A stretch of 64,000 nucleotides of DNA from Ginglymostoma cirratum. Taxonomy: Eukaryota. Where the stretch lies: NCBI GenBank assembly GCA_024137785.1, contig JAHRHZ010000069.1, positions 22,032,750 through 22,096,749 of the forward strand. The letters run 5' to 3'. This document shows, in pieces, positions 7,650 to 63,274 of this stretch. Position numbers and translations under genes: made by a program. Position 1 is the first letter of the stretch; every line of letters starts with the position of its first letter. The notes under the pieces are model-generated. The model did not search any database, was not told the origin of the DNA, and was given only the letters and a program-made list of their open reading frames with translations.

Positions 7650-8195
7650 ACAACACCATATGGAGCTGGAGGAACACAACAGGCCAGGCAGCATCAGAGG
7701 AATGGGAAAGTTGACATTTCGAGTCGGGACCCTTCTTCAGAAATGAAGAGGGGAAAGGGAGCTCAGAAATAAATAGAGAGAGGAGGGGTGGGGCTGGGGA
7801 AGGTAGGTGGCATGGTGATAAGGGAGTGCAGGTAGGCAGTGGTGGGGATTGGTCAATGAGGTGGGATAGGTGGGGGAGAAGATGAACAGGTTGTGCCACA
7901 TCAAGGAGGTGGGGATGAGAGGGAGGCTTGGACATGGGATGAGGCTGGGCAGGCGGGGTGATTTTAAAAACTGGTGAATTCCATGTTTAGGCCATCGGGC
8001 TATAGGTTCCCGAGGTGGAATATGAGGTGTTCCTCCTCCAGTTTGCAGGTGGTGTCATTGTGACACTGGAGGAGGCCCAGGATGTACATGTCACCCAGGG
8101 AGCGGGAGAAGGAGTTAAAATGGTTCGCGACTGGAAGGTGCTGTTGTTTGTCATGTACAGAGCGCAGATGCTCTACGAAATGGTCTCCGAGTCTT
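7650..8195 (-). mobile_element. Penelope-like element 3' fragment: GIY-YIG C-terminus plus family A pLTR
   Basis: Minus strand ~8195-7965 translates RLGDHFVEHLRSVHDKQQHLPVANHFNS...KLEEEHLIFHLGNL*PDGLNMEFTSF*, typical of the PLE endonuclease tail. A C-rich UTR and a pLTR with a hammerhead-like core follow (7713-7740). Confidence 0.85.
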
Positions 8196-11100
8196 CATTT
8201 GATCTCACCGCTGCTGTAAAGGTGTCTTGTATATTTCCACTTGTAGCAAGTGGATATTGCTGAAGGTAAATAAATGCTGTTTGGCAATTGTGTTGCTGCT
8301 CTTTTAGTTTAGTTTGAAAATGTATAGCAAACAATTTTAGTAAATTGAATACAGCATAAGATATTTTGGAAGAGTTGAAGAAATGCAATTCTCGGGTGCT
8401 TCAGATAGGTAGTTTGAGGCTGTTTGACTGAAAATAACGTAATTTAGTTAGAATAAAGCTAACCAGACTTGAGAAGTCTCTGTATTCCTGATGTTGATAG
8501 TTGAAGATGTTGAGGGTTGTGATTTAATGGCTCAAAATGTTTTTTTTAATGCGTCAAATTGTTCCAGAGCGGATTGGGTTGTGCTGTCAATGATCAGCAG
8601 CAGATTCCACTGTAATAATTTGTTCCCATGAGATACTTACCTACATACTTCCTTTTAACGCACGAAACAGCCCAAGGACTTCACAAGACAAATTATCAAA
8701 TGACTGTAGGAGTTCAGAGAGACAGAGAAACAAAATAGCCACACCAAGATGCTACAAGAAATCATACCCAAAAAATTTGTCTATGTGCTGTTAATTTTTA
8801 TGATACTACCGTAAGCAGTTTTGGCCCTAAACTTTGAATTTTTTAAAATCTCTCTCTTTCGCTGTAAGTCTATCCTGTCTCCTTATGTGGTTGACATCAC
8901 ATTTTGTTTGATAATTGCGCTTATGAAGTACTTTGGGACAGTAAAGGCATGACATAAATGTAATTTGTACTTTCTACTGCTGTGGATTGCACAAGTCCAA
9001 CTGATGTTACTTTTTAATACTGTTTTTAAAACTGCTGTTTGGGAAATTGAAGTGATTTTTTTTTGACAATGTTGTTTTCTGGTTGGGATGTTATCGTTGT
9101 GTTTTGTGACTTTGCTCGGCTTACAATTTTGGCTTACACGCATCTGTGACATACTCTTTTGTAACAGGCCAGATGCTGTAATTCAAAGCTATCCCTTTCA
9201 GCAAAACCAATTTATATTGCTTTTATTAAATCCAGCATTCTCCTTAAACAGAAAGTGGGTGAAACTTATTCTGTTAGGTAATGAAAACAACTGTAGCAGA
9301 CAGTTTAAGTATACTTTTTCATTTAATGTCTGTTCTGCCCTCCAGACTAGTTTATTAAAAATGTTAAAGATGAGGGAAACATGATGGAATCCCAGCTCTC
9401 TGAAGGCTAAAGCTAAAAATAATAATGACTGAATTCTTGGTTTAAGCCAACCTTAAGCTCCCTTGATTACTCTGAGATTTTTACAGCAATGTCCTGATCA
9501 TATCATTTCTGCTTTGTTGTGCAGGATTTGGTTGTACCTTCTAACATTTTAGCCCCTTTCATGGTTGTATTTTTCCAATTTCTATCTCATTGATCAGATT
9601 GACTGAGTAAAATTTGACAACGCACCATATTGTGTTTTGAACACGAGGCAAAGTTTGATGTCACTCCCAAGTTGAGTTTCATGGGGACTGTGTATATCTT
9701 CATGTTAACTTCAGGACCAGAGGCTTGAGGCCAGTCTTTCTGTTGTGCCACCAATTGGGGTCTTTAAGTGACTAACTAACGTCCACTCCAGGGCCACATC
9801 CCTCCACTAAGTGTATTCAGTCAGCTCCTGATTGAGGATAAGTTGATATCTCAGCTTACTCCAGTTGGATGAAGTACACACAGTCCTTGTTATCTGCTGA
9901 GGTGTTATCTCTGTGCTCGTGAGGTCAACCCCAGGACCCATCACGAACTTTTTCAGAAGGCTTTGAACTGCACGCAATGTTTCAAAATGCCTGCAAATGA
10001 GCAGGAGTGTGTGAAGATGTATTCCTGCATATGTGAGTCTGTTCCTATGTGCAAATCTCCCATACCATCTATGTGTGAGCATCTGCATCCCACTGTCTTG
10101 TCCAGTTCCACATGTGGTCTGCCCTGGTAAACATCACACCGTACATCTGAGGGGCCCTTTAGTGGTATGTGTGTTTGTTGTTACCTGTGCCATGTCCATG
10201 CCCCTATCCTTTGTGGATAATGAGTTCGGAGTGCAATGCATCTTTCTTATTGATACTCTGCAGCAAATTGTTCTAATATCACTGAAGAACCTAGGCAGAC
10301 ATTTTAAAAGTCAGAACTAATTGTGAAGTTTTGCTTAAAATTTCCAGGTAGCTGTGATTTAATCAGAGCTGGTACATGTGCCATGTGCAGGAACTATCTG
10401 TTTAATAAGGTACCGAGTATGTATCCACTGATGAAAAGCACTTCCTGTTTGCTTCAAACATTCAAGTAATCTCAGTGGAAACTACCTAAAGTTGATCTGA
10501 AAACTGTTGTCTTTTCTTTTACATTAACCTCCCCGTTCAGGTCAGTTGTTCATTAACTTTTTTCTTCATTCTGTGGAAATCAGAACATTTTGGAATTGCT
10601 GATGTCCACCTGAAAGCTTGTGGCTTGCACTTGTCTGAAATGGATCTTTTTGCATGAGTATTTCTTTGATTGAGCTGTCTTTTGTGCTCCTCTTCTGTGC
10701 CTCATGGGAGCAATACCGAATTGCCCTTATATTGGTATTCCTACAGATTTCCTTCTGATGAACAAATTTCCCAGCTCACTGGCTCCTTAAAATGTCTTCA
10801 TTTTGTTTTGGAATTAGAAAAATGAAAGTGCTGTGTACCTTGGATCTGCTGGTTGTTGGGGGAGTGTAGTGCCAACTCTGGCATACCTCCTCAGCAATTT
10901 AGGTAGGACTTTCTCCAGGGATCTTCCCCCATCCCCACCAGTCCTAACCAGAGTGATTGTTTTAAATTTCTGTCAGTTACATTCTAAAAGCACAAAAATA
11001 TACTTTATGGCTAATCAAGTCCATGCGAGGGTGTTTCTCCTCAAGATCCTGAGCCCACTCATTCTTCAATTCCGAAATTCTGCTCTTTGCTGGAAAAAAA

Positions 11101-11519
11101 AGGAATGTTAATAAACGGAATCTTTGTTCTTAGAACAAAAATTCCTTTTCAGTAGCAGTTTGTGATAGATTTTCACATTTCAATAACTGTCTGTTTCAGG
11201 ACTTTTATCCAACCTCAATGTCTTTTGGTGATTTTCTTAAATGTGTTCCCGTTCATTACCCTCCCTCAGACCAGTGAAAACAATCAATCCCTACTTGGCT
11301 TGTAATAACTTATCATTAGTCTTTAAGAGCTCTATTTGGTCAACCTTAAAATAGTGAAAAATGAACTTGTCTCTTCCTAAAATTTCAACACCTGAGCGAG
11401 TTGGTAGCAGCACTTTTAATATTGTCTTTGGGTCCTTCCTCTAAGTAGATTATTTGTAAATTGCGATGGCGGTGAAACTTGTAATCTTATCCAAGTTCAG
11501 CATTCATGTCATGTAAGTA

Positions 11520-12128
11520 CTGAATCTCCCATCATCAACTCCGTACAAGTTGGCATTGACCCACAAGTTTAACCGGACCAACCATATAAATAATATGGCT
11601 ACAAGAGCATGTCAGATTGGCTCTCTGTGGTGGCTAACTCACCGCTTGACTCTTTTAAAACTTATCCATCATGTGCAAAGCACCAGTCAGGAGGGTGATG
11701 GAATACTGTCCACATGTCTGAATGAGTTCAGAATCAACAACACACAAGAAGCTTGACACCTCATCCACCAATTTTAAGATTTCACTCCCTCCATCACTGA
11801 TTGACAATGACAGCAATGTATCCCATCTACAAATAGATGGCAGCGACTCACCAGGCCCCCATCAACCTCAAAGTATACCACCTAGACAAACAGGAGTAAC
11901 AGAAGTATGGTAGTACTCTCACTATCAAATTCCATTCAAAATACACACCATGCTGACTTGGAATTATATTACTGTTCCTCCTCTGGCACTGGTAGGACCC
12001 CCGGAATGACCTATGTGGCATCAAATACCATAGATTTAGAAGGTTGCTCACTGCTCCTTTCAAGGGCAATTAAGAATGAACAACAAACACTAGCCAGACT
12101 GGCCGCAAGCCGCGAATGAATATCGAAA
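11520..12128 (+). mobile_element. decayed CR1-group LINE 3' part (second lineage)
   Basis: Frameshifted peptides HKFNRTNHINNMATRACQ, QVRRVMEYCP-like and TTHKKLDT. The 3' end tcaagggcaattaagaatg...gaatgaat is shared with SINE family S3. Confidence 0.7.
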
Positions 12129-23330: not shown

Positions 23331-23967
23331 GTAATTAAGCCTCACTATCCAATGAACCACTACAGATGTATACATGACCATTAGAATCACTGAGATGGGT
23401 AATTTGTCTGATTCTGAGTGTTAGCTAGGACAAAAGAAACTTGCACCAGGTTTTATCAATAGACAAAAACATGCTTATTTATTATTAACAAACTGCTAAT
23501 TTAACAGGTGGCAAAATAGATTATTAAATACTCTGCAAACTTAAACTATATTCTTGTTAAATACAAAGACTCATTCAATCACAAGTAAGACAGTCAAAGC
23601 CGACAGTTCTGCAAAAATATTGTGGTGGTAAAGCACAGGCAAGAGGAACAAATTCTGTGGATCAAGAGGCGAAAGCACAAGGGTGGAATGAAGTGACTTT
23701 CTCACAGTTCTTTTGGATTATGGTGATGGTATGACATTGTTGTAAATGGCAGACCAATAGCAGAATCTCAGTTTGGTAGGTGATCAGTTGGACCGAAGTC
23801 TTTGCTCGAGTTAGAAGTTCTCCTTTTCAGAATCTTTGAGAGTTTCTTTTCCCCCATTCAAATGGTGAGGTAGGAGAAAACGGTCTTTGCTTGCAGGTTT
23901 CCCAGAGGTCTGACTACTGCTGTCCGGTCTTCGGGCTTGACAAATTGCAACCTAATAATTGATAGAA

Positions 23968-25382
23968 GCAGAAAGAACTGCAGATGCTGTAAATGAAAAA
24001 CACGAACAGAAGTTGCTGGAAAAGCTCAACAGGTCTGGCAGCTTCTGTGAAGAGAAATTAGAGTTAATGTTTCGGGTCCAGTGACGCTTCCTCAGAACTG
24101 ATGGTAGCTAGGAAAATGTGTTTATGTGCAGAAGATAGGCTGAGGGGAGGAGGTAAACAGTAGGTGGGGATAGAGCCCAAAGAGAGAGAAGAACACTTAG
24201 ACTGACAAAGGAGTGGATAATGATCTGTCTAGGAGAGTGAATAGCTGTTATTGGAGACTGTTAGTGAGTAACCGTAGGTAGTGGGGGGTGGGTGGGTGGG
24301 GTGGGGGGTTGGTATTGCAAGTGAAGGATGAGTGGACCAGGGTGTCCCGGAGAGGACAGTTTCTGCAGAAGGTGGACAAGGGACGGCGACATGTGTGTGG
24401 TAATGGCATCTCATTGGAGATGGTGGAAATGGCAGCTGATGATCTTCTGGATGTGGATGCTGGTGGGATGGTAGGTAAGGACAAGGGGAACCCTATCGCC
24501 TTTGTTGGAGGGAAGAGAGGGGGTGAGGGCAGAACTGCAGGAGATGAGTCGGACTCAGTTGAGAACACTGTCGACAATGGAGCTGGGGAATCCTTGGTTG
24601 AGGCAGAGGGTGGACGTTTTGGAGGCCCCCTCGTTGAAGTTGGCCTCATCGGAACATAGGCAACGGAGACACAGAACCTGGGAGAATGGAATGCAGTTTT
24701 TACAGGAAGCAGGGTGAGAGGATGTACAGTCCAGGTAGCTGTAGGAGTCAGTGGGTTTATTGCGGATATTCGTCGACACTTTATCCTCAGAAATGGAAAC
24801 AGAGATGTTGAGGAAAGAAGGGGAGGAGTCAGAGATAGGCCAGGTGAAAGTGAGGGCAGGGTGGAAATTGGAAGCAAATTCGATGAACTTCTGTGATTTT
24901 GGATGAGAGAGGGAAGCAGCACCAATGATATCTTCGATGTGTCGGAGAAAGAGTTGTGGGTGGGGGCCAGAACAGGACTGAAACAAGAAAAGTTCTGCAT
25001 AACTGGGGCCCATGTGCATACCCCATGGTCACCCCGTCTGCCCTGGAGAAAGTGAGAAGACCCCACAGAGGCCTTATTATCGCAGTCTGCTATTACACAT
25101 CACTGATTGTTAGCTATTAACAGTCTCCAATAACAGCTATTCACTCTCCTAGCCAGATTGTTGTCCATTCCCTTGTCTGTCCAAGTGTTCTTCTCTCTCT
25201 TTGGGCTCTACCCCCACCTATTGTTTACTCCTTACCTCCGCCCCCTCCCCATAGAGAAACCAATATTTTCCTAGCTACCATCACTTCTGAGGAAGGGTCG
25301 CCAGATCTGAAAAATGAACTCTGATTTCTTTGCACACATGCTGCCAGACCAGTTGAGCTTTTCCAGTAACTTGTGTTTTTGT
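23968..25382 (-). mobile_element. Penelope-like element (family B): RT fragment between ~280-bp inverted pLTRs
   Basis: Minus-strand RT reads TMG/HMGPSYA.LF, QLFLRHIEDIIG (RYIDD-like), FHPALTFT, SFLNISV, KPTDSYSYL and SSHP. Arms ~24000-24273 and ~25108-25382 are reverse complements. TSD taataattgatagaa (23953-23967) vs taaaagttgatagaa (25383-25397). Confidence 0.92.
24062..24099 (-). ncRNA. minimal hammerhead ribozyme motif (family B, slightly decayed)
   Basis: AGUU-CUGAGGA-A-GCGUC-ACUG-GACCC-GAAAC-AUU-AACU. Stem I is AGUU/AACU. Confidence 0.6.
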
Positions 25383-25407
25383 TAAAAGTTGATAGAACTG
25401 ATGCTAG

Positions 25408-25547
25408 AGATAGCAGGAACTGCAGATGCTGGAGAAAGGTCTGAAGAAGGGTCTTTGTGAAGAAGGGTCTAGGCCCGAAACGTCAGCGTTCCTGCTCTGA
25501 TGCTGCTTGGCCTGCTGTGTTCATCCAGCTCTACACCTTGTTATCTC
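25408..25547 (+). mobile_element. short family A pLTR-only insertion with 14-bp TSD
   Basis: Perfect TSD agaactgatgctag at 25394-25407 and 25548-25561. Termini are gagata...tatctc, and a hammerhead core lies at 25441-25484. Confidence 0.9.
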
Positions 25548-25989
25548 AGAACTGATGCTAGGTAGGTTCTCAGAAAGTTACATGACCTTGTGTAAGAAAT
25601 AAGTGAATATACACCTGAGTAGTGAAAAAATCTGGTACATTCTGTGCAGTATGACAATGCCAAAACTTTAGGTTTTCCTCGGTTCATATTCCAAAGAAAG
25701 CATGGTCCATTTTTGTCTAATTGTGCGTTGTGAAGCACTTTCAAACAATTTCAATATGAAGGTTCTGTAAGAAGTGCATGCTAATGTTTGCAAAGAGAAG
25801 AATTGCTGTTTAGAATGGATCTAGACTCCGTATGTTATCTGAAAAAAGTCTTCTGTGCCTTCCAATTAAAGTTCAAACATTTGCTCCTTTCTTTAGAGAG
25901 TTGACTATAGAACTTAATTAATTGCTGAATATCAAAAATAAATGTATAGCACACAACATAACTTTCGAGACTATATACGCATTTTAAAG

Positions 25990-26165
25990 TTATTCTTCAG
26001 TTGTGGGAATCACAGGCAATGCTGGCATTTCCTACCTGTCCTTGGTTGCCTTGATAAGGTCGGTTTGCATTTTGAACCAACCTGACTGAGTGGCTTGCCA
26101 TTTGAGTGCCATTTGAAGGGCAGTTAATATCTAATTGTATTGTCATGCAAGTGGTAAAGGCAACT
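25990..26165 (-). mobile_element. SINE family S3 3' fragment
   Basis: gtgggaatcacaggcaatgctggcattt...ggttgccttgataagg...ctgagtggcttgc...gggcagttaa, as in the 47993 copy. Confidence 0.55.
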
Positions 26166-27254
26166 CACTATTCCTTATGCTGACACTTGTAGGTGTAATA
26201 CTAAGCACACATATTCAATGTGTTCAGTGTGAAATAGAGAACAATGGAAAATTGGTTGAATCCATGTCTCAAGTATTGTATTAAAAACAGATTTTGGATT
26301 CAGATGATGTTGAACTTCCATTACCATGAAAAGATTTTACTTTAATTTTCAGTATATTATTAAGGTGGAAAAGCTGTTCATATAAATGCTATGAAGTCAG
26401 ATTGTCACATTTCTGTTTCCAAAACTCCTTTGTATAGATCCTGATATGAGAAGCAGCTCCTATAAGGAGATCAAAGCCAATACATTTAGATTCCATCGGT
26501 TTAGGCTGTGAAATGTAATCTAATGCAATCATCCATCATAAAATGAGAGGTTCCAAGGATGAGAAGAAATTTAGCTCATTGATTCCCTTCGCTTTATTGC
26601 CTCAGATCATCTGGTTTCAAATTAAACAGTAACTTAAAATGCTGAGTCTTTGTTTTCCAATATCTCAGTAATTCCTAGTTCCAAATATTTACATCCATTG
26701 TGTAAACCAGAGTTTCTTGAGAAGCATTTCAGTTCAAAGTTTTATTTTCACTGGTTTAAATTAATTTCTTGCCTGATACACCCACTTACTACAGAAAATT
26801 TCAAATAATATTGTCCATAATCATTGTATACTTCTGGAAAGTCAACCAACGGGAGTTTTCTTTCGGGATTTTAAGTCCCTTCTTTCAATAAAGCACCTGC
26901 TTATTTTGTTTGAAGTGATTCCTGTTGTTTTTCATGGCATCCTTGCCAATCAATGTCGTTTTTATTGAAATGTAGTGAAGTAGTTGTAATTTATTTTCAG
27001 TCACATTGACAACAAATGGACCACTGTTTTAGAAAGGTGTTAATTATTGTGTCAGAAAAAACCGTTAAAGCAGTGTCCCTTGGAAATGTGCTGAACAGAA
27101 TTACTTAAAGTATTACAAAATATTTCTGATCAGAGCTCCATTAAGGCTTTATAATGTAATGAGGATTTACACTCTCTCTTTGTATTCCAACATTTGTTAC
27201 GTTTTAATTGCTTGCTTGCTTTTTCTTACAATTGAAAGTGACCTGTCTGCTGTT

Positions 27255-27455
27255 AACTAAAACAAAAGTAAATACTGTTGGTATTGGAACCCTGAAATAA
27301 AACAAAGAAGACTGTAATTATTCTAAATCTGGAGAAAGATAAACAGAATTAGCTTTTCAGTTTGATCATTTTCCATCAGTATTAACTCTGTTTCTCTCTT
27401 CACAAAAACTATCTGGCCTGCTAAGTGTTCCCTGCTTTCTCTATTTATTTTTATG
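27255..27455. mobile_element. ancient palindromic family B-like pLTR remnant
   Basis: ggagaaagataaacagaattagc is inverted to ttaactctgtttctctcttcac. The layout resembles the 32952 copy. Confidence 0.45.
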
Positions 27456-27996
27456 TCTGCCATTATTTCCAGATCCCTTTCAAAGTGTGTCTGTGCAAAT
27501 TGTATTCTATGTCCTGAATTTTACAGGGCCTCCAAGAGCGTCCTATGAAGTGGGGGAGGAGGGGGAATGGTTTTGAAATTCATGGATGCAGTTAGGTGTA
27601 TCTGGCTCCTTCTCACCACATTGGCATTTTATCAGTAGTGTGGAGGGTGGTGTACAGCCTTTCTGCTTTAGGCCAGTTGAGGATGTTAAGCTCAGGGTAT
27701 ATCCCAGTGACCTCCTTATGAAGTGTGAGGAAGTGGGGCGGCAGGGGTATACACTCCTGAGTGGTCCATGGAAGGTCACCCCCTGAGTAACACGCCATTT
27801 TCTGAATCTGCTTGAATCGCTCAAACCTTGTTCTGGGGCCTGCCATATTGTTAGTCCTGCCTGGTTGCAGTTTCAAATGTGGCCGCTATTTCTGGTGGCA
27901 CTACTGGGATTGAATATTGACCTGTCTGGCAGGCAGTTCTAGGGAGTGGGGACTTTGTCCGTAAAGGAACAGGAGCCCCAATACAGGCAGTTAATA

Positions 27997-28089
27997 AGCA
28001 TGGGGCTGGATGAACACAGCAGGTCAAGCAGCATCATAGGAGCAGGAAAACTTGACGTTTCGGGCCTAAACCCTTCATCAGAAAATGTT
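27997..28089 (-). mobile_element. short family A pLTR-only insertion with 12-bp TSD
   Basis: Perfect TSD aggcagttaata at 27985-27996 and 28090-28101. Confidence 0.9.
28054..28081 (-). ncRNA. minimal hammerhead ribozyme core, intact
   Basis: Minus strand reads CUGAUGA-A-GGGUUUAGGCCC-GAAAC-GUC. All conserved core bases are present, with a GUC cleavage triplet. Confidence 0.75.
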
Positions 28090-28754
28090 AGGCAGTTAAT
28101 AGCCTGCTGCATGTAAAGTTGGGCCAGGGCTCTTATCTAACCAAAGCAAAGTTGTCTCTGACCTCCCAGCTAATGGACAAGATGACCATCGCAAATAAAA
28201 AATCCTGGCCCGTATTTTGGTTTCCATTTAGATCATGTGTCTGGTTCCACATTGTGGCGATGCTACTGTAGCTTTCTGGGTTTGGTGGATGTCAGCCTGA
28301 ATTTTGCTGCATACTGGCTAACTGTAAATTTTGGTGAGTTTTATTGAGGGAATTGATTCTTTGATGCTTAGCAAGATTCCTCAAGTTATTTTCGAAACTT
28401 GCATCATTGCCTATGCGCTACATCCCTATGGCACCCTGCTCGTCACATCTACCTCACGTCACAGGTGGAAGTAGTCCCTGCTGCCAGGATCTCCTGGAAT
28501 TCCCTGAGCTAGCACCACATTTAAAGCTCAGCTGTTCACCCAGTCAAGCACTGCCAACCATGTCCTTCATGGCCTTCATTGTGCATTTAGTGGGAGGGGA
28601 ATCAAAAACAAATCCAGTGCTTCTCTCGACACCCAGGTGGCATGGCTAACATTTAAATGCCACTGCCAGCGCTCATTTGTAAAGCCATTGATATTTAAAA
28701 ACCAAGCCATACAACTTAGCCATCAATGGCCTTATCCAGTTTTAGAACTGTGAC

Positions 28755-29469
28755 TGAAGAGTGTGGCTGAACAAAGAGACCTTGGTGTGCAGGTTCTTAG
28801 TTCCTTGAAGGTGGAGTCACAGGTAGACAGGGTGGTGAAGAAGGCATTTGGTATGCTTGCCTTCATTGGACAGTGCCATTGAAAATGCCATGTTGTGGCT
28901 GTACAGGGTATTGGTTAGGCAACTTTAAGAACACTGCATTCAGTTCTGGTCTCCTTGCTGCAGGAAAGACGTTGTTAAACTTGAAATGTTGCAGAAAAGA
29001 TTGACACGGATGTTACCGAAGTTGGAAGGTTTGAGTTGCAGGGAGAAGCTGAATATGCTGGGGCAATTTTCCCTGGAGCGTCGGAGGCTGACGCGTGATC
29101 TTATTAAGATTTATAAAATCATGAGGGGCATGGATAGGGTGAATAGCCAAGGTCTTTTCCCACCAGTAGAAGAGTCCAAAACAAGAAGGCATAGGTTTAA
29201 GATGAGAGGGGAAGGATTTAAAAGGGACCGAAGGGGCAACTTTTTCATGCAGAGAGTGGTGCATGCATGGTTTGAGCTGCCAGAGGAAAAGGCTGGTATA
29301 ATTACGGCATTGAATAAGCATCTGGATGGGTACATGACTAGAAAGGGTTTAGAAGGATATCGGCCAAATGTAGGCAAGTAGGACTGGATTAATTTAGGCT
29401 ACCTGGTTGGCATGGATGATTTGGACTGAATGGTCTGATTCCGTGCTGTACATGTCTTTGACTATATGA
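28755..29469 (+). mobile_element. 5'-truncated CR1/HER1-type LINE
   Basis: EQRDLGVQV, LERRRLTRDLIKIYKIMRG and GNFFMQRVVHAWFELP. The 3' UTR ends tctttgactatatg. Confidence 0.92.
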
Positions 29470-29889
29470 CGAAAGGAGTGTATCTCTACCTAATATCCAA
29501 CCCTAACATCATCTCATTTTTCAATGTGGGAGCAACATCAGAGATAGTAAAGCATCACACCATTGTAAGTGTTTGTGTTTATTCAGCAACAGCAAAAACG
29601 AGCAATAAAGAGAAAAACAAAAGCTGCATCTGCCCCTGGAAACAGACAGGGATTGCTTGCCTTTTGAGCCCTAACAAATTTACAGTCAATGAGCGATCAC
29701 TGCACCCAACTCTCATCTGCTAGGAAGAAAGAGTAAATTAAGTCCCATTTGGCTTCTTGAATCTGTCACTGCAGTGTTCTATCATGGAGAAGGTGATGTC
29801 CCCCTGCTCACTGTTCCTAACTTGCTGTTTGGAAAACTGCTGCCTCTCTCCCAGCTGTTCAGAGTCCATTGCATCCTCTCATTGCCTGC

Positions 29890-32194: not shown

Positions 32195-32545
32195 CATGAT
32201 TCAGACCTGGGGGTGGCCTGGCAAGGTTGCTCATCATTAGCTATGACTGAATAGCTTGTTAAGTCACTTCAGAGAGCAGTTGGCAAGAGTTGATAATAAT
32301 GTGGGATTGCATTTAGAATATTAATGTTAGATTGGACTCCTGCATAGGTCTATAAGTGTAAGGATGATTATTCCCCTTCTCTCAGTGACATTAGTAACTA
32401 GGCAGCTTTTATGACGATTGAATAACTTTGTGGTCACTTTTACTAAAACTTTTTTTTTATTTTCTGGATTTCTTGTAAAAACAATTACAGTTCTCGTGGT
32501 GGGTGTTGAACTTGGATTCTTGTGGCTTATTACTTCATGTACTAG
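32195..32545 (-). mobile_element. decayed SINE family S3
   Basis: cacttcagagagcagtt...gacattagtaac...ggtcacttttactaa...gtgggtgttgaac matches the other S3 copies. Confidence 0.5.
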
Positions 32546-32951: not shown

Positions 32952-33109
32952 ATAGAAAAACAAATTGCTGGCAAAACTCGACAGGTTTGGCGGCATTTGT
33001 GGGGAGAAAGCAGAATTAACGCTTCGAGTCCGATGACTCTTCATCTGATGAAGATGCAGTTTCTGTTTTTGTTTCAGATGTCCAACATCCACAGTTCTTT
33101 GTGTTTATT
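32952..33109. mobile_element. short palindromic family B pLTR insertion
   Basis: The left arm carries a minus-strand hammerhead-like core (33018-33047). The inversion point is cttcatc-t-gatgaag and the right arm is mostly tail. Decayed TSD ttctagattgatag vs ttccaggtggatag. Confidence 0.75.
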
Positions 33110-40642: not shown

Positions 40643-41549
40643 TAGTAAGTTTGCAGATGACACCAAAATTGGTGATGTAGTGGACAGCCAAGAAAGGTAC
40701 CTCAGAGTACAACAGGACCTTGATCAGATGGGCAGGTGGGCCGAGGAGTGGCAGATGGAATTTAATCTAGATAAATGTGAGGTAAACCCAGGTCGGACGT
40801 ATACACTTAATGGTAAGGTGCTGGGGAGTGTTGCTGAACATAGAGACCTAGGAGTGCAGATTCATAGTTCCTTGAAAGTAGAGTCACAGGTAGATAGGAT
40901 AGTCAAGAAGACATTTGATATGCTTGCCTTTATTGGTCAGTGCATTGAGTATAGGAGTTAGGAGGTCTATTGTGGCTGTACAGGACTTTGGTCAGGCCAC
41001 TTTTGGAATGCTGCTTACAGTTCTGGTCTCCCTGCTATAGGAAGGATGTTGTGAAACCTGAAAGGGTTCAGAAAAGATTTACAAGGATGTTGGCGGGGTT
41101 GGCAGGTTTGAGCTCTAGGGAGAGGCTGAATAGGCTGGGGCTGTTTTCCCTCGAGCATTTGAAGGTTGAGGGATGACCTTATAGATCTTTTTAAAATCAT
41201 GAGGGGCTTGGATAGGGTGAATAGGCAAGGTCTTTTCCCCAGGGTAGCGAAGTCCAAAACTAGAGGGCATAGGTTTAAGGTGAGAGGGGAAAGGTTTAAA
41301 AGTGACTAAAGAAACAACTTCTTTGTGCAGAGGGTGGTTCATGTATGGAATGAGCTGCCAGAGGTGGTGGTAGAGGCTGGCATAATTACAACATTTAAAA
41401 GTCATTTGGATGGGTATATGAATAGGAAGGGTTTAGAGGGATATGGGCCAAATACTGACATATGGGACTAGATTAATTTAGGATGTCTGGCATGTATGAG
41501 TTGCATTGAAGGGTCTGTTTCTATGCTGTACCATTCTATGACTCTATGA
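40643..41549 (+). mobile_element. 5'-truncated CR1/HER1-type LINE
   Basis: SKFADDTKIG (FADD at 40650-40661), WQMEFNLDKCEV and LVRPLLECCLQFWSPCYRKD. Tail is ctatgactctatga. Confidence 0.95.
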
Positions 41550-46552: not shown

Positions 46553-46848
46553 GGGATGGCACGGTGGCTCAGTGGTTAGCATTGATGCCTCATAACATCA
46601 GGGACCCAGGTTTGATTCCAGCCTTGGCTGACTGTCTGTGTGGAGTTTGCATGTTCTCCCTGTGTCTGTGTGGGAGTTTTCCACCTGCTCTGGTTTCCTC
46701 CCACGATCCAAAGATGTGCAGACTTGGTGGATTAGCCATGGTAAATACAGAGTTATGGGAATAGGATAGGGACCTGCGTCTCGGTGGAATGGCTATTCAG
46801 AGAGTCGCTGCAGACTCAGTGGGCTGAATGGCCTCTTTCCGCACTGCA
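46553..46848 (+). mobile_element. HE1-type V-SINE
   Basis: ggcacggtggctcagtggttagc, ggtttgattcc, V core and tail gggctgaatggcctctttcc. Confidence 0.9.
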
Positions 46849-49885: not shown

Positions 49886-51094
49886 AAATGGGAAAACCTT
49901 TTAGGGTAAGCAACCACAGTCTGTCAGCACCTGATGTTCCCTTACGACCACATCCCTGTTGGTTGAGATTTCCGTTAGGTCTAAAGCAAGGCAGTTTGTC
50001 ACATTTCATTTCAAAATAATGCACAGTTCATTTTGTGGAAAACCAGGTAAAATAATTTTGTGATGCATTGAAGATGAAAACACTCTGTCATTCTGCTTCT
50101 CAATGTTGCAGAAGATGATGATTGTTAGCAAAAAAGACCCTGCCCTTCGTCTCTGAGCTGTAACTGAATATGTTAAAGCTATTGAAGATAACAGCAGGAG
50201 GAGGCAAAATATAACCACACCTATAATTAATACTGATTGATGCAATTCAACTGGCAAAAAAAACTCACCACAGTGGTCTGCAGGTTACTTTGCTGTTCTA
50301 ATTTTGTTGAAAAAGTTCAAATTAATTTCCTACTAATAGACTAGAGCATACAGAATGTGTCCTTTGCTAAACAATTATTCAGAGCTTACTGTACCAAATT
50401 AGTGCACTGGTAAAGTGGAATTTCAAGGACAAAATGACATACGTCATTTGGTACTTTTAATTGTCCTATGCTTACCAATTTACATGGTTCACTTTTACAT
50501 TTTGTATCCGGCAGACTAATGAAGAGTTTATGGTAAAATAAATTTTGTGCATCTTATGCCAAGTTGCTTACATCTTACAATTCTGCATTTAGTTGAATTT
50601 CCACCCCATTAACTTTTACTTGTGTTGAAAGGCCTGTGGAGGTATATCAGCTCCTTCCAGTGGCCAGTGCAGTAAATTGAGATACAGAGCAAATTGACTA
50701 CAAACTAGTCTAGTGGTGAGTTTGTTAAAATTCCACACAATGTATTTACACCTTTCAAATGAATGATCAGCAAAGCCTGTTGACCAAGGCGTATTTTTGG
50801 ATAAATACTCCTTTCAGTTTCTAGTGTATTTACATCTTTGTTTCCAATAGTTCCAGGTTGAGAAGAGCATCTCACATGTTCTAATTGCCCCACTTTTATA
50901 TTCACAAAGAGAGGCATTACGCTCTCGATGGAATTTTCGTAAAGTATGTTTGTGGGTCCAAGATGTTTGACCCTGAAACCTTGCTTTATTTACAGAATAA
51001 AAAGCATCTGATTGAAGGAGGTCTTTTATGGTCGAATTCGGCGCTTAGTGTGAAGTATCATTTATACTGACTCCAGAAGACCAATGTTAATTAA

Positions 51095-51228
51095 AAACTG
51101 AAAGAACTGTGGATGCTGGAAATTGGGTACAAAAACAGAAATTGCTGTAAAAACTCAGCAGGACTGGCAACATCTGTGGAGATAAAGCAGAGTTAACATT
51201 TCAGATCCACTGACCCTTCTTCAGAACT
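51095..51228 (-). mobile_element. short family B pLTR-only insertion with 16-bp TSD
   Basis: TSD gaccaatgttaattaa (51079-51094) vs gactgatgttaattaa (51229-51244). A decayed hammerhead lies at 51191-51228. Confidence 0.85.
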
Positions 51229-51369
51229 GACTGATGTTAATTAACAGGTTTCCACTATTTTCACTGCGAGATCTGATTCTTTTATATTAAACTGTGTTGG
51301 CTTCTGGGTCTAGTTCTGAGTAACTTAACTGGATTTAGTATTGCAAATATTGATGGCTGGTAGTTAGTT

Positions 51370-51666
51370 TCATAGAATTATCATAGAACCCCCACAGTGT
51401 GGAAGTAGGCCATTAAGCCCATCAAGCCCACAGTGACCCTCCAAAGAGCATCCTACCCAGACCCAACCCCCTGCCCTTTCCCTGTAACCCTGCATCTCCC
51501 ATGGCTAACCCACCTAGCCTGCACATCTTTAGACTGCGGGAGGAAACCCATGCAGACGTGGGCTGAATGTGCAAACTCAACACAGACAGTCGCCTGAGGA
51601 TAGAATCGAAGCCAGGTCTCTGGCACTGTGAGGCAGCAGTGCTAACCACTGAACCACCATGCTGCT
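51370..51666 (-). mobile_element. HE1-type V-SINE
   Basis: Reverse complement of the 37067 and 46553 family, ending gctaaccactgaaccaccatgc. Confidence 0.9.
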
Positions 51667-53335: not shown

Positions 53336-53490
53336 AAAAAGAAAGCATCTGCGTAAGGATTTGGACTTCTTAGTCCATAAAAATGTCAGTGTTTTGCTCT
53401 GCAAGTTCTTTTGTTGTGCAGTTGCTATTGTTTTTCTTGCATGGTGAGATTCCACAATGCATTGAATAACCTGTTAATCAGTGGTGTTTG

Positions 53491-53578
53491 AGATAACAAG
53501 GTGTAGAGCTGGATGAACACAGCAGGCCAAGCAATGTCAGAGGAGCAGGAAAGCTGACGTTTCGGGCCTAGACCCTTC
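53491..53578 (-). mobile_element. short family A pLTR insertion with 15-bp TSD
   Basis: TSD aatcagtg[g/a]tgtttg at 53476-53490 and 53579-53593. It is truncated inside the hammerhead core. Confidence 0.9.
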
Positions 53579-54504
53579 AATCAGTGATGTTTGTTCAGTC
53601 TGCTAGTGAGTAAGTGAATGCCGCTGTTCCAAATCCCACAAGCATTTTGATTTATTTTAAACAGATGTTAATACATCTTTTAAAAACCTCATTACAAATT
53701 ATAGCACAAAATAGCTCTTCTGTAATTCAGATAGCTGGGCGGTGAAGGATAGATCTGAGAGCTGGTTTTTATACACTTATAAGTTTTCATTTGTAAAGAC
53801 GCAAGAATATATTAAACATCTTGCTTGTTTATTTTGGCCACTACCAATACCACTTTGTGCCTGTGTCTAGTAACGCGTGAGACGGAGAAAGCACATGCTT
53901 ATGTCTGTTTCCAAGGTTAGTTTGCCTGGAACATGTTGCCAATCTGTTATCAAAAGCTATAGTCTAAGGGGCGCAACAGTACATCAACTGTGGTTGACCA
54001 GGATACTTTTCTGCTGTTAGCACGTGCGTGGGCGTATCGGGACGATTGACACATTGATAAGCAACCAGGTTTGTCCACAGCATGAATGCAACTTGTAGAC
54101 TATCAAGTACTGGAGTGGGGCTTAAACCCAGAGCTTCTGGCTGGAAGAGATGCTTGATGTCATTTGTGGTTTACTATATGCGTTAGTCTAGATAACACAT
54201 GGACCACTGGATTCTTGTAATCAGGTGTCTGAAGTTTATGTGCAACACTGACTATTTAAAAGGCTACAACAACACAGACGTACACACATAGTTTGGCTGT
54301 GCTTACTAATGATAGTATACGTTGCAAACATACACAACCAACAGCCTACACTACTTCAATTATCTGGAGAGACCGTGTAGACGAGGCATGTGTTATCATG
54401 TAACTGTTTGAAAGGTCTGTTTGCTCTACAGTCTGTGCTATAATTCAAGATGCTGCCCATTGTGCTACAAAATGTCCTGTGTGTGTTTGTGCTGTACTTT
54501 GTTG

Positions 54505-54672: not shown

Positions 54673-56096
54673 GGATAAGATTTTAATCCCTGAAACAGTA
54701 AATGATAAGATGCATGTTAAGCAAAACTATCGTATGACCTGGATAAGGAATAGCTTTGGATCTCAAACGAAGTAGAACGACCATCTGGTTCTCACTCATA
54801 ACATTTGTAACAGTGTCTATCATACCAATGTCACCTGTATCTTATCGCTTTCATTCAATAAAACACAACCTATTTAAGACAGGAAACATTGTATTAGTTT
54901 ACCATCTGGATTTCCTCTACCACACCAGTCCAGGCAGGTCCTATATATTCCAAACTAAAAAGAGGATTATGAGAGCAAATCTGCTTTATACTGACCAATA
55001 GTCCAGATAACTTGTACAACATGAGCAATCCTATCCATAATATTCCCTTTGCCCTTATCCTAAATACCTTGAATCAAACAAGCTCTGAGTCAGGTGGCAC
55101 TCAAACCTAGACCTTCTAGCCCAGAGATAGAGACATTACCACTGCACCCACTCGATTCAAATGCTTATAAATTTTTGTGCTCGACATATCGTAATATTTC
55201 ATTTTTACTAATTTATGAAATAGTCTTCAGCACTTCGGAGGAGACAACTTTGCACAGTTGTATGATTCAGTTAATATTTTGCAACAAACATGAATTAATG
55301 ACCCTGAGCTTATCATTAGAAGCATGGGTGAGTTTCCAATTAATGCTTGATGTGAGTTTTGTTCTCCGTAGAGTATTTTTACCTGCTGTAATAATTTTTA
55401 TGTCATCCCTTGTAACGTTATAAATTAGGCGTGGTCACCCTGATATTGAAGTATCGGACAGATTCTCACTACCAGCTGGCTGTTATGTACAGATTATTAA
55501 ATTCACAAGCGCACTGGTGTCTGGAGGAAGTTAAGCTGCAAAGTATAGTAGGCTTCTATCAACATGTCGTGCTTCAACTCATTCCAAGTGAGATGGCATC
55601 TGAGATCTTTCTGTGTTATTGATGATGTCATGGCTCTATATTAAAGTATATGGACTTGGAGACATAACACAAGGCCTGTCACTTGAATGCCATTAAGCAG
55701 ACAATTGACACACAATTAACACCCTGTTGGAACAGATTTTTACACTTTTGCTTTATAAAAGCGCATAAGATACATTCTCGGTTCTGATTCCTGCTTTTCA
55801 AAATGAAATGTTTGCACCTGTTGGAAATGAAACCTGGTCCTTCTCACCTCCAGCAGTATAATATATTTATTTGGTGCATTCACTGTGAGCTGTGATGCAT
55901 ACCCAATGCACTAGGATAGAGCACCCTCATGTGGTCAGGTTTTTAACTCTGAACGAGGGACACTGAGCTTACAGGGGAGCATTTGGAAAGTTTAGCATAT
56001 TCTGGAGTAAAACCCTAATAATATCTTCAATTAGTTCAAATGTATGAGCATTAAAATATGGTATTTTTTGAGCGCAGCTATTGCTATTTGTTTGAA

Positions 56097-56630
56097 ATAA
56101 CAAGCATGGGGCTGGATGAGCACAGCAGGTCAAGCANNNNNNNNNNNNNNNNNNNNNNNNNNNNNNNNNNNNNNNNNNNNNNNNNNNNNNNNNNNNNNNN
56201 NNNNNNNNNNNNNNNNNNNNNNNNNNNNNNNNNNNNNNNNNNNNNNNNNNNNNNNNNNNNNNNNNNNNNNNNNNNNNNNNNNNNNNNNNNNNNNNNNNNN
56301 NNNNNNNNNNNNNNNNNNNNNNNNNNNNNNNNNNNNNNNNNNNNNNNNNNNNNNNNNNNNNNNNNNNNNNNNNNNNNNNNNNNNNNNNNNNNNNNNNNNN
56401 NNNNNNNNNNNNNNNNNNNNNNNNNNNNNNNNNNNNNNNNNNNNNNNNNNNNNNNNNNNNNNNNNNNNNNNNNNNNNNNNNNNNNNNNNNNNNNNNNNNN
56501 NNNNNNNNNNNNNNNNNNNNNNNNNNNNNNNNNNNNATGCTCCTATGATGCTGCTTGACCTGCTGTGCTCATCCAGCCCCATGCTTGTTATCTCGGATTC
56601 TCCAGCATCTGCAGTACCTTTTATCTCTGA
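56097..56630. mobile_element. palindromic family A PLE insertion spanning the gap, 15-bp TSD
   Basis: Perfect TSD tgctatttgtttgaa at 56082-56096 and 56631-56645. The arms on either side of the Ns are exact reverse complements over 40 bp. Confidence 0.9.
56137..56536. other. assembly gap (400 N)
   Basis: Run of N. Confidence 1.
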
Positions 56631-59630
56631 TGCTATTTGTTTGAACTTCAGTCGGAAGTCAGACAGGTAATATTTCAAAAAGGTTTCATTGTTGATGATT
56701 TAAAATAAAAGGAAAGTGGGGAGAAAGGACTTTTACAATGTAAAAATATATCATTTCAGTTTTCAGGTTCGGCAACACAATAACCGGAAATTTGACACCT
56801 GCAGATTTCATTGTGTAATTCGCAACCACTCAACCAATTCCTCAGTGGGCTGTCTTTTTCACATTTGCAGCCTGTACATTATATTCCTGCCAGGTAAAGA
56901 TTAGCTCAGGAGGAGATTTTTAAAATCCTCCTCTGTGGGTTTTGGTTTATGCTTTGTGTCATCTTACATGTTGACTGAGACTCTCAGAATACAGAGAGGT
57001 TTGATGTGGCGGACCTGACACAGATTTCACCATTCTTTTGTGCATTGTTTTAGAGGTTCAGTATGCCTCAGCATTCTGTGAATAATTTTTTAATGCATAC
57101 TTCATTTCACTGATGCTTGATTAGCTTTGGACTGATTATATAAAATTAAAAATGTCTCCAGTTTTCTACCCTTAACCATTTTCTCAAGGCAATGTGAGGC
57201 AGGCTGCAGAATGGGAGCTACCAAGACATGGTTTGCAGCACAAACTGTCAGTCAGCTCTAAGCCAACCTGATTTCTAGCTTCAGGTCAATTCCCAGGTGG
57301 TTACACATATTACTTACTGCAGAGACAGGGGTTGACAAACTGTTTGATATTTTGAGACTGCTCGCTTTTGTCTATTCTAAACATTAATCATTTATACCAA
57401 GAAGAGTTTACTTGCTAGGAATTGGACATTACTGACTTGTGGGACAGCCTATAGTATCCCTGTTTTGGCTTCTGGGGCCAGCGTTTGTTTCAGTACTTTG
57501 TAAACTTGATCTGTTTGGCTGATCGGTATCTGCTGCAGTATATTGCTGCAAACAGAGGAAGAACTGTTGAGTATTGATATACTGTATTCATTTGGGACTT
57601 TGCTAAAGACAAGATTGGACTTAAAACCGCATGTGATTCAAATACTCTACAGATTTCAGCAATGAGAGCTAATATAAAGCTAGGATTTCTACCTTTTTAA
57701 AAAATGGCATTGCCTTTATGGACAGCTAATAGAAGAAATAGTGTGACTCAATTCCACATTGATGAAAGAATTAACATTCAGTGATCCAATGAGCCCAATC
57801 TGCCAAATCAGTTCAACAGTCTAATTTGTCTCTTGTTTCTTAATTGATTGCAAATTTGAAAGTTTGACATAGGACTTGTGTCTTTTTCAGTTTGCATGGT
57901 TTTCAGTTGGTTCTCACGGTTCCTGATGGGACGGAGGTGGAACAATTATGTCACTCCACCTCTGAAGCTAGACTACTGCATTGATCATTGTAAATACTGC
58001 ATCGTGCCATTTGCTGCATGTTCAGCTCAGAGCCATTAGACTGGATTGAGGAAATTGCAATTTCTTTTTGTTTTTACCGCAAGTGATCGGGTAGAGAGAG
58101 CAAGAGCACGATGGTGACAAAATTCAAATAACTTGGAACATGTTTTTTCAGCATTATTGGTATTTCAGGCCCAAAGGTGCATCTGGAGCAAATGAGTTTG
58201 GTTTGGTTATGCTCGATGCCATTTTGATGGGGCCGTTATCCTGGGCACTTGGGAGTACATACCAAGGAATGTAGAGTAGGCAGTTCATGGTTTCAGTCAG
58301 TGTGTAATGTTTGGAGCAGTGTCTTTTTCACCTACCTTGCTGAACAGCTTGGAACAGTTCTTGTCCTAAACGACCCAGTATTATACTGCAGTATTGTCAT
58401 GTGGACAGCAGTAAATAGTGAGGGTAACAGCTGGGGAGGTAGTGGTGACAGAATGAAGGATGTTGTCCTGAAAGGTGTCTAATAACTTCGTCTTGTTGGA
58501 GTCATTGCCACCCGCCTGGGATAGCACTGTAGCCATGTTTCTTTTATCGAAAACACAGATTATGGATTGCTGTCCACAGCCACAATGGCAGCTGTGTGAG
58601 AATGCGTGGTGTCAGTCAGCAATTGCATGGCAACAAGTTGAGTTTGCATGACTTCAACCTGATCTTTCACTGCAGCACTCAGATGATCAGTAGCTTCTTT
58701 CACATGGAGTTGGTCATCAGTTGAACACTAGAAGGAATGGGTTTCCAGCTCTCAACAAGATTTTAGCTCGACTCACTATGCTCCTAGACAACGACAGACA
58801 AGAGGCTTTCTGGCAATCTTGTTAAGGCACTGACTGTTTTGTTGTGTGTGCTTGTCAGCTTTTCTTTTAAAAGTCGCTGCTGATTTGAACCCTGTAAAGC
58901 AGAACATGTGCATTGTCTGACACAGCACTCGGGAGACAGGCACTCCCCCAAAACCCTATCCCCTTTTCATGCTGCAAGACGCTTGTGCCTAATATAGCAC
59001 GCCGAGCTGATCCCGTCTCTGCTAGCCTTCCGTGTATGCAGTGGCAGTATCTAAGCTGGTGGCTACAAGTATGAGAGAGAGTAATTGTGTTTCTTTGCAT
59101 CAGTGTCAGCCTCTTCCTTGAACACCTGTTGTTGTGGTGAGGGGAGAGGGAAAAGCAAGATGTGCATATGTACACCATCCACGGCCTGTAAATCAGCATG
59201 TGTGGGATGAGGGCTAAGTGGGATATGAGGAGGAGGATTTGCTATGAACAAAGTATCGCTGTTGCTGGTTTTGGCTGCTCCATTATCTGTGGCCCCCATT
59301 AATGGCCACTGCAGTGATGTCGAGCACCATCCCCTCAGTCAGGGTGAGGGCATTCAGTCAATATTGTCCTTTGGCTTCCTGCACTAACCTTGTCCTGCTA
59401 GAATGAATGCAATGTGTTAGTGAGTGTGATGTGAGGAATTTGGGTGATGAGGCTACAGGGTGGAATAGCTGGCAGTGAGTGTAAGCTGCCAGATATGGGT
59501 GCAGGTTTGCAGCAGTGCTTAGTGTGTGAAGGTGAGGCAAAACTGTGAATGTTAGGCATATGTCTTGTTGAATAGGTAGTTAAATGTTGGAGTTGTTGAT
59601 TGAGTTATCTGTGAGGCAATAGGTTCGGTT

Positions 59631-60273: not shown

Positions 60274-60621
60274 TAGAAACCCTACAGTGTAGCAACAGGC
60301 CATTTGGCCCAACCAGTCCACCATGGCTCTCCAAAGAGCATCCCACCCAGACCCACCCCACACCCTATCCCTGTAACCCTGTATTTTCCATGGCTAATCC
60401 ACCTAACCTACACATCCCTGTACACAGGGCAATTTAGCATGGCCAATCCACCTTACCTGCACATCTTTGGACTGTGTGAAGAAACCAGAGCACCCGTAGG
60501 AAATCCATGCAGACATGGGGAGAATGTGCAAACTCCATACGGTCGCCTGAGGGTGGAATTGAACCCAATTCCCTAACGCTGTGAGGTGGTAGTGCTAAAC
60601 AGTGAGCCACCGTGCTGCCCC
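60274..60621 (-). mobile_element. HE1-type V-SINE, full length
   Basis: Reverse A and B boxes (cagtgagccaccgtgctgccc, gaattgaaccc), V core and tail. Confidence 0.92.
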
Positions 60622-62227: not shown

Positions 62228-62335
62228 GGTAACCAACCTGTTCAGATACGGGACACACTTCTGGAACAGATGGGACTTGAACCTGTATCTTCTGCCTCAC
62301 TTGTAGGGATAAAACCATTGTTCCACAAGACCTCT
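62228..62335 (-). mobile_element. SINE family S4
   Basis: aacctgttcagatacgggacacacttctggaacagatgggacttgaacct...ccacaagacc. Confidence 0.65.
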
Positions 62336-63068
62336 GCTGGTACCAGGAGGTCAACTGGAAAATCCAATCTTGCTTTCTTCTTAGCCTTGATGGGCTGTTG
62401 ATGACCTTAATTGGCAACTGCTGCATGTGGATGTCTAGCCATACCTCCACCTCTATCCTGCCTCCATATTAATATCTATCAAGCTGGCGACCCAGTCTGC
62501 TGGTGTCATGTGTACTGCCAGCTGGCCTTCAATTCTGCTCCCAGTGAGCTCTAAGCATCAAACCTGTGTTTTGAGTCAGCCGTTGTGTTCTGTAGATACT
62601 ATTATTCAAATGCCAAACATTTTTGATTTTTTTTTCCTAAAAGGTTTGCTAAATTCTACTCCCCAGTGATCTTTTTTGTTTTACTATGATCTGGTTCCTG
62701 GAATTTTAAATTTCCTCTGCCTGGATTCAGTCGAAGATTCAGAGATGGATAGCTGCAGTGGGTGAATTACGATCGATTTATTGAACTCCGTATTGAGTCC
62801 AGAAGATTGCAGGGGTCCAAAGCAGACAATGAGGTATTGTCCTTCCTGAGCTGAGCTGAACTGAATTGAGCTTTGAATTCAATAGTTTTAAGGCCTGAGT
62901 ACCTTCTCCCATGTGCTAACCCCCAACCCCCACACACCAGGCCTTGACATCACATGAGCTGCTGCCACAATGTACCTGTTATCAGCCAGTAATGTTCCCC
63001 ATTAGCAACTATTCATTCTCCCTGGCTGACCTTCACCCATCCCTTTGACTGCCCAACTGTTCTCTCTC

Positions 63069-63274
63069 AGAGATAATAGGAACTGCAGATGCTGGAGAAC
63101 CTGAGATAACAAGGTGTAGAGCTGAATGAACACAGCAGGCCAAGCAGCATCATAGGAGCAGGACAGCTTGACTTTTTGGTAATGAAGGGTCTAGGCCCGA
63201 AACGTCAAGCTTTCCTGCTGCTCTGATGCTGCTTGGCCTGCTGTGTTCATCTAGCTCTACACCTTGTTATCTGT
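63069..63274. mobile_element. palindromic family A insertion nested in the family B element
   Basis: Arms 63103-63172 and 63204-63272 are near-perfect inverted repeats. The tail is at 63070-63102. TSD tgttctctctc at 63058-63068 and 63275-63285. Confidence 0.9.

Follow-up and report, generated by a model that had tools for sequence, protein, structure and literature searches.

A 64,000-nucleotide stretch of the Ginglymostoma cirratum genome (hereafter the window) contains six short copies of a sequence, here called family A, that resembles the pseudo-long terminal repeat (pLTR) that Penelope-like elements (PLEs) carry. A preliminary description of the window took these copies for tiny hammerhead-bearing mobile elements of ~130 nt, derived from a self-cleaved RNA and mobilized in trans by the reverse transcriptase (RT) and endonuclease of a PLE. 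The question raised by the locus is whether they are a small element in their own right or the ends of an ordinary PLE, inserted alone. The copies are real and partly recent; each is an insertion of only the end of a Neptune-type PLE, a pattern that is known for the class. Most probably (we put the probability at about 0.58), all six are products of the RT/GIY-YIG protein of such a PLE, and are short mainly because the RT initiates on a pLTR close to the RNA's 5' end and runs off the template.

Six short insertions and their relation to a PLE

In the sense of the PLE, the family A module is composed of a hammerhead, a body of ~65 nt, and an optional tail of ~33 nt. Direct repeats flank all six insertions, with target-site duplications (TSDs) of 11–15 nt, while among 20,000 random pseudo-elements, for which an exact repeat of at least 11 nt was demanded at both edges, only 2 showed one by chance. 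The A+T content of the duplications (55–73%, vs. 61% in the window) showed no clear bias. The window has a G+C content of 39.5% and a single gap of 400 N (56137–56536), which interrupts one of the six copies; the five complete ones measure 140, 93, 78, 88, and 206 bp. A search of the window with a profile made from eight arms returned no family A copy beyond the six, matching only the related family B, and the density is six per 64 kb, or ~1 per 11 kb.

Two subfamilies can be distinguished. The arms of subfamily 2 agree pairwise at 77/78, 47/48, and 40/40 letters within the window, and the sense arms of subfamily 1 at 81/88 to 83/89. Subfamily 2 comprises the copies at 27997–28089 (minus strand; TSD of 12 nt, 27985–27996 and 28090–28101 on the plus strand, as are all duplications given here), 36404–36481 (minus strand; 11 nt, 36393–36403 and 36482–36492), and 56097–56630 (arms in both orientations; 15 nt, exact, 56082–56096 and 56631–56645). 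To subfamily 1 belong those at 25408–25547 (plus strand; 14 nt, 25394–25407 and 25548–25561), 53491–53578 (minus strand; 15 nt with one mismatch, 53476–53490 and 53579–53593), and 63069–63274 (arms in both orientations; 11 nt, 63058–63068 and 63275–63285). On all of these points, namely the six insertions with their own TSDs, the lengths of 78–206 bp, the gapped copy, and the two subfamilies, the preliminary description was confirmed.

The copies at 27997 and 53491 are single tail-less arms, whose 5' ends lie 8 nt upstream of the hammerhead core and within the first catalytic box, respectively. The copy at 36404, the one tailed copy of the three that are single-armed, has no hammerhead, its truncation lying ~21 nt downstream of the cut site. 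The others are head-to-head composites, with a tail on one arm only in three of three. At 25408, an inverted 29-nt tail (25408–25436) is followed by a tail-less pLTR in sense orientation, at whose 5' junction the hammerhead restarts; at 63069, a tailed arm (63069–63172, minus strand) ending near the cut site meets a tail-less arm that runs to 63274 on the plus strand and has a damaged first box; and at 56097, a tail-less left arm and a tailed right arm, identical at 40 of 40 visible letters, are separated by the gap. The only assembly gap of the window sits between identical inverted arms, as would be expected if short reads fail at a palindrome.

Family A has two 3' ends, with and without the tail, ~33 nt apart. 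Genome-wide, both were found again as loose ends, at 25546–25551 in all four sequencing runs considered below, and at 36401 in one of them. A tail at one end combined with an inverted 5' arm is an arrangement reported for PLE insertions (PMC8557442; PMC3846280; PMC8969392), and a pair of 3' ends, arms inverted head to head, and heavy loss of 5' sequence are classic features of PLEs (Craig 2021; Frangieh 2024). A single unit of ~130 nt, as had been postulated, is incompatible with two different 3' ends and three inverted composites (25408, 56097, and 63069).

The link to a coding PLE is provided by an older family A pLTR on the minus strand, which forms the 3' end of a 5'-truncated PLE (7650–8209). 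The order there, all on the same strand, is the end of the GIY-YIG open reading frame (ORF; 7964–8209, the C-terminal part of a PLE GIY-YIG endonuclease with two stops, recognized by protein matches and tblastn), a pyrimidine-rich 3' untranslated region (UTR) of 220 nt between the ORF stop and the hammerhead (7744–7963, with no second copy in the window), and a tail-less pLTR (7650–7743) with a degenerate minimal hammerhead from 7740. Because this pLTR shares only 76–79% identity with those young arms that contain a hammerhead (64/84 to 67/85; 72/92), and no TSD was detectable around the copy, it is best regarded, from the comparison of sequences, as an older relative of the young arms and not as their source. 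The preliminary description had the same sequence capping the GIY-YIG fragment; what stands is a homologous pLTR and the tie to a PLE, and not sequence identity.

A 64-residue open piece of the GIY-YIG fragment matched 27 predicted proteins at 69–84% identity. Among the 15 of these that were examined, several have RT, a thumb sequence, and a CX4CxxC linker before the GIY-YIG domain, for example the whale shark relatives P0007 and P0013; the window fragment is truncated before the position of the linker. Pfam recognized GIY-YIG in one of four relatives, below the cut-off, and gave no match to the window's own fragments. The five proteins that were looked up, one of them from the set of 27, are whale shark gene predictions. 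A CX2-5CxxC linker marks the Neptune and Nematis clades (Craig et al. 2021, PMC8557442). Because the pLTR lies 3' of the GIY-YIG ORF and the linker is present in the relatives, family A can be assigned to the 3' pLTR of a putative Neptune-type, endonuclease-positive (EN+) PLE of sharks, the linker being a mark that Neptune and Nematis have in common. Within the window, a pLTR 3' of a GIY-YIG ORF on the same strand was found for the 7650 relative only, and in no case for a young subfamily.

Whale shark gene predictions P0031–P0034 read through family A ends. Back-translation of P0034 gave a palindromic copy whose arms join at the upstream edge of the hammerhead, and P0031 couples a subfamily-1 pLTR peptide to antisense RT sequence, in a gene model that could splice unrelated pieces. 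An ORF starting inside the hammerhead, as in Anolis, was also considered: the subfamily-1 frame is open through the tail, yet only one and four short whale shark predictions were found, none of them in frame into the RT, which is weak evidence either way.

The age of the copies was assessed by comparing four contig sets, out of 24 runs listed, over 25000–37000, an interval that covers the loci at 25408, 27997, and 36404. Two sets (X1 and X2) come from the species of the window (organism A) and two (X5 and X16) from related species (organisms B and C). All eight X1 pieces listed showed no letter differences from the window (one contained a gap), and pieces entered the 36404 copy from both sides, so that X1 carries it. 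Divergence from the window was 3.8–4.6% for X5 and 6.5–7.6% for X16 (two pieces each, with some differences uncounted). The X5 contigs join 27984 to 28090 and 36392 to 36482, and at these two sites X16 is missing 105 nt and 88 nt (net), respectively. The skipped lengths equal the element plus one duplication, 93 + 12 = 105 nt at 27997 in both species, with the duplicated sequence present once, and 78 + 11 = 89 nt at 36404 in X5 (net 88 in X16). Because the related genomes skip exactly the element and one duplication, both of these subfamily-2 copies were inserted after the split from the two related species. Empty sites were thus found for two of the three loci compared. The subfamily-1 copy at 25408 seems to be shared with organisms B and C, to judge from a single-copy X5/X16 piece that must start at or before ~25536, inside the element. 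Subfamily 2 spread after the split from the two relatives, as is directly visible at two loci, and subfamily 1 is older. Of the recent, high-density activity claimed for family A, the density holds for the family and the recency for subfamily 2, by the empty orthologous sites that the preliminary description had proposed to look for.

Hammerhead and 5' ends

Although the elements had been described as hammerhead-bearing, the full core pattern was matched only once in the window, within the 27997 copy. This minimal type I core (28054–28081, minus strand), without helix III and with the palindrome ACGU, is the only clean one in the five complete copies. The first catalytic box is damaged at the junction in 53491 and 63069, and 25408 retains it only in its duplicated, restarted junction; 36404 has no hammerhead, and the corresponding position of 56097 falls in the gap. 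Helix III is missing and the ACGU palindrome is present in all four young arms that reach this position. In nine arms of families A and B, the cells of helices I and II were paired in 84%, vs. 11–65% when slid, and their covariation was not above that of shuffles. Rfam, searched at E up to 5, gave three matches in the window, none to a hammerhead family, and two sub-threshold matches to microRNA models reflect the 63069 palindrome. Folding of nine arms gave no z-score under −1.83. The hammerhead fold scored −2.6 kcal/mol and the best fold of a monomer −9.3 kcal/mol, and no hammerhead dimer was obtained when two copies were cofolded. Outside the shark, a hammerhead pattern scan of viral contigs gave no match, and scans of metagenomes gave none and then one (L001), which was rejected as a chance match: this contig, of 61% G+C, matches no PLE protein and, past the pattern, shows no homology.

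For numbering the 5' ends, the first base of the core was taken as 0, which places the cut after +27. Seven ends of young arms are visible, and two more are hidden in the gap. Four lie near the edge of the core, at about −8 (27997), −1 (25408, right arm), −4 to +3 (63069, right arm), and +5 (53491); the others are at +25 (63069, left arm), +49 (36404), and the start of the tail (25408, left arm). Four of the seven thus fall within 14 nt at the upstream edge of the hammerhead, 22–36 nt upstream of the cut site. Relative to this site, one end is near (63069, left arm, within ~3 nt), four are upstream, and two are downstream. Because their 5' ends lie upstream of the cut, the template of the four edge-starting arms was uncut RNA.

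A self-cleaved RNA of ~130 nt as the template, the core of the earlier proposal, is not supported, in view of these four ends and of the lack of any tandem hammerhead unit in the window. Nor is it favored by the PLE tested in vitro, the Anolis Poseidon element, for which insertion was reported to be unaffected by hammerhead mutants and no RNA-seq reads to end at the cut site (PMC11167929). In metazoan PLEs, minimal hammerheads are described as thousands of single motifs per genome, and as pairs on opposite strands 100–700 bp apart, both ascribed to truncated PLEs, and the monomers did not cleave in vitro (PMC4209133). Likewise, eight of nine Xenopus hammerhead dimers showed no cleavage in vitro (bioRxiv 10.64898/2026.07.22.740005). 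The hammerhead would then be a passenger, and the template mostly uncut RNA. The other part of the proposal, a PLE origin with insertion by a PLE-type RT and endonuclease, is supported.

The significance of the clustering was estimated with the long copy included, as four of eight ends within 14 nt, in a test picked after the data had been seen. The probability was 0.003 for ends distributed uniformly over 0–600, 0.001 for an exponential with a mean of 500, and 0.017 for one with a mean of 200. A tailed arm of family B (51092–51233) starts near −9 as well, and this shared edge favors a fixed position over a fixed length.

Origin of the end-only copies

We propose that the endonuclease would cut the target with a stagger of 11–15 nt, as seen in the duplications. 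The RT would then begin at one of two internal sites of the RNA, ~33 nt apart, and so produce the tailed and tail-less 3' ends; this step is modeled on Anolis Poseidon, in which the tail lies between two internal sites where the RT starts (PMC11167929). If both strands were primed, at the two sites, head-to-head inverted copies with one tailed arm would result, which is the anatomy observed. Finally, an RT that initiates on the pLTR close to its own RNA's 5' end would run off just upstream of the hammerhead, and the remaining copies would be early truncations. An RNA that starts just upstream of the hammerhead, copied from its first pLTR, would give complementary DNA of ~90–135 nt with a fixed 5' edge, and no separate element would be required. 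In the Drosophila virilis Penelope, the transcript is reported to start in the upstream pLTR (PMC2377424) and an intron to end at helix I of the hammerhead (PMC4209133).

Several observations weigh against this explanation. The young subfamilies have no ORF- or UTR-bearing copy in the window, where the only ORF-linked pLTR is the 76–79% identical relative at 7650. The in vitro support comes from an element of the Poseidon clade and not of Neptune, and the position of the RNA 5' end is a presumed one. At a truncation scale of ~100 nt, the clustering is not significant (P = 0.089 for an exponential with a mean of 100, and 0.18 for a uniform distribution over 20–150). All four edge-starting young arms are tail-less, and a length limit near 90–105 nt would fit them too. 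None of the four young arms that reach the hammerhead passes it by more than 8 nt, vs. four of five older ones (Fisher P = 0.048, in a post hoc test biased by the fact that old short copies are harder to see). Lastly, the six loose ends listed per run had no upstream continuation in common; those listed correspond to the two 3' ends, and none to the 5' edge.

The shortfall of young arms beyond −8 is what would be expected of the strongest competitor, a short, non-autonomous, pLTR-only master similar to a short interspersed element (SINE). It would begin at the upstream edge of the hammerhead, span ~135 nt, be transcribed into its own RNA, and rely on the protein of a related PLE for insertion in trans, with subfamily 2 as a recent burst. 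The near-identity of the subfamily-2 copies agrees with this, as does the contig depth summed over the 27997 bin and divided by that of the 25408 bin, a ratio of depth and not of copy number, which is 1.0 and 0.89 in organism A and drops to 0.11 and 0.09 in organisms B and C. There are also precedents, since pLTRs are reported to suffice for trans mobilization in rotifers (PMC3846280), and putative non-autonomous PLE derivatives are described in Chlamydomonas (PMC8557442). However, the 5' hot spot recurs in subfamily 1, in family B, and in the back-translated P0034, and so looks like a property of PLE ends; P0031 has the usual inverted-pLTR arrangement with antisense RT, subject to the splicing noted above; and no master or promoter was identified. 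Both ends should be fixed in copies of one master, and here the 5' ends cluster in four of seven arms, but there are two 3' ends and inverted composites. We consider such a master rather unlikely. The copies expected of it are those expected of the favored explanation, and the two would differ only in that a master would lack a parent with an ORF. If it did exist, it would be lineage-specific, would have reached a very high copy number after the split, and would require no polymerase III head and no tandem or circular stage. Strictly speaking, family A is not a SINE: the polymerase III head is lacking, a search of the window (E up to 5) gave no match to tRNA, 5S, or signal recognition particle RNA, and the whole unit aligns to the PLE end.

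Plain stochastic 5' truncation with a very short scale is a less probable source than a master. The hot spot would then reflect microhomology at the T-rich edge of the core together with small numbers. Heavy 5' truncation is usual for PLEs (PMC8557442), other ends lie 29, 78, and 103 nt from the end of the tail, with one further copy of ~560 bp, and the junctions of 53491 and 36404 have 3–5 letters in common with the target. Under the short-scale models the clustering is unremarkable, as given above (P = 0.09–0.18), but the scale near 100 nt has to be assumed, and the same edge is found again in family B.

It is very improbable that family A is a non-LTR retrozyme, whose tandem units self-cleave as hammerhead dimers and circularize before the circle is reverse transcribed. 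The core does have a dimer-type architecture, by the pairing of helices I and II, the left arm of 63069 ends within ~3 nt of the cut site, and PLE-derived retrozymes are reported from one chondrichthyan (bioRxiv 10.64898/2026.07.22.740005). Rare, apparent head-to-tail joints of 91–93 nt, from elsewhere in the genomes, were also present in contigs, from 25544 to 25454 in all four runs and from 25550 to 25458 in three, but at depths of tens to hundreds vs. ~1 million on the element (X1 and X2). None of the six copies is tandem, and the 10 tandem repeats of the window include no array of consecutive complete hammerheads. Nor is there any circular permutation; the letters upstream of the 27997 core resemble the 7650 UTR and not the tail. 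The single clean core among five complete copies, the covariation, and the inactivity of minimal monomers and most Xenopus dimers in vitro (PMC4209133; bioRxiv 10.64898/2026.07.22.740005) argue against it as well. A further joint, from 28074 to 25404 (tail end to core), was confined to a single contig in one of the runs and was left out of account.

Slimmest of all are the chances that the copies are solo pLTRs, formed when the direct pLTRs of a full-length insertion recombine (a unit with inverted and direct pLTRs would collapse to a palindrome like 63069). Such recombination would keep the duplications and explain the fixed 5' edge, and the solo pLTRs of rotifers are attributed to it or to deletion (PMC3846280). 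It would, however, require frequent exchange between ~100-bp repeats in very young copies, and it leaves the start of 36404 downstream of the hammerhead and the tail-only arm of 25408 unexplained; the rotifer solos are, moreover, described without duplications (PMC3846280).

Known relatives, neighboring repeats, and significance

Family A shares with EN+ Neptune-clade PLEs a pLTR downstream of a C-terminal GIY-YIG domain, a hammerhead in the pLTR, target duplications, and, in its relatives, the CX2-5CxxC linker, as well as an optional tail of 30–40 nt on one end and a head-to-head inverted arm (PMC8557442; PMC3846280). Its duplications are longer than those given for rotifer examples of PLEs (11–15 nt vs. 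8–10 nt; PMC3846280). Other differences from known EN+ PLE insertions are that the young copies consist of ends alone, that their 5' ends gather at the edge of the hammerhead, and that the density is one per 11 kb. The hammerhead resembles the minimal ones of metazoan PLEs, a type I core without helix III, with an extra base before helix II and a palindromic 15.2–16.2 (Cervera and de la Pena 2014, PMC4209133); that study, as far as its text was available, names no shark and does not map duplications, 5' ends, or empty sites.

The Anolis carolinensis Poseidon element PAc (Frangieh et al. 2024, PMC11167929) likewise has two 3' ends set apart by a tail and an uncut RNA template; its targets are described as A+T-rich, a bias that is not clear in the duplications of family A. 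It belongs to another clade, and its ORF starts inside the hammerhead, whereas no protein was found here from the pLTR frame into an RT. Non-LTR retrozymes are similar in being non-coding, pLTR-related, dispersed monomers with a type I hammerhead (PMC7229834; bioRxiv 10.64898/2026.07.22.740005). Those described are, however, tandem units with complete hammerheads and circular RNA (PMC7229834), whereas no family A copy in six is tandem or permuted and most have no complete core. Retrozymes are reported to derive from PLE pLTRs, with a mean unit of 363 bp (Li et al. 2026, bioRxiv 10.64898/2026.07.22.740005), and the portion of PMC6155905 available adds nothing further on sharks. By title and abstract, the literature contained no description of this shark family; Dfam/Repbase and the supplements of the 2026 preprint fell outside the comparison.

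Family B, an older PLE family whose hammerhead end is related, is present in the window at 23960–25393, 32954–33107, 51092–51233, and 62987–63563. Its anatomy is the same as that of family A, with arms of ~50 bp to >1 kb that include RT; the first of these copies contains an inverted pLTR and an RT fragment with 49% identity to a whale shark relative. Two of the six family A copies adjoin or interrupt older family B elements, 25408 at the end of one and 63069 inside the UTR of another, a possible preference for insertion into PLE ends, in numbers too small for a test. Three fragments of a long interspersed element (LINE) RT/3' end family (2605–3331, 28759–29469, and 40734–41549) are presumably CR1/L2-like. 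A ~300-bp interspersed SINE-like repeat, which may resemble the shark HE1 type, has four copies (37068–37395, 46557–46846, 51384–51665, and 60274–60618). At 35102–35142, a 41-nt near copy of 34035–34074 substitutes for 7 letters of organisms B and C, a templated local insertion from 1.07 kb upstream that is probably a product of repair.

To a pattern already known as a class, the locus adds the proof, by empty sites, that PLE ends of less than 100 bp insert as such, together with a burst, now dated, in one subfamily and a hot spot of 5' ends. The lineage-specific copies can serve as presence/absence markers. Should a pLTR-only master exist, PLEs would have in it a minimal, non-autonomous partner. 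If, instead, the hot spot is the 5' end of the RNA, the young shark copies would map the start of the PLE transcript and both RT start sites in vivo, and would provide a direct genomic test of internal initiation, which has so far been seen in vitro for one lizard element.

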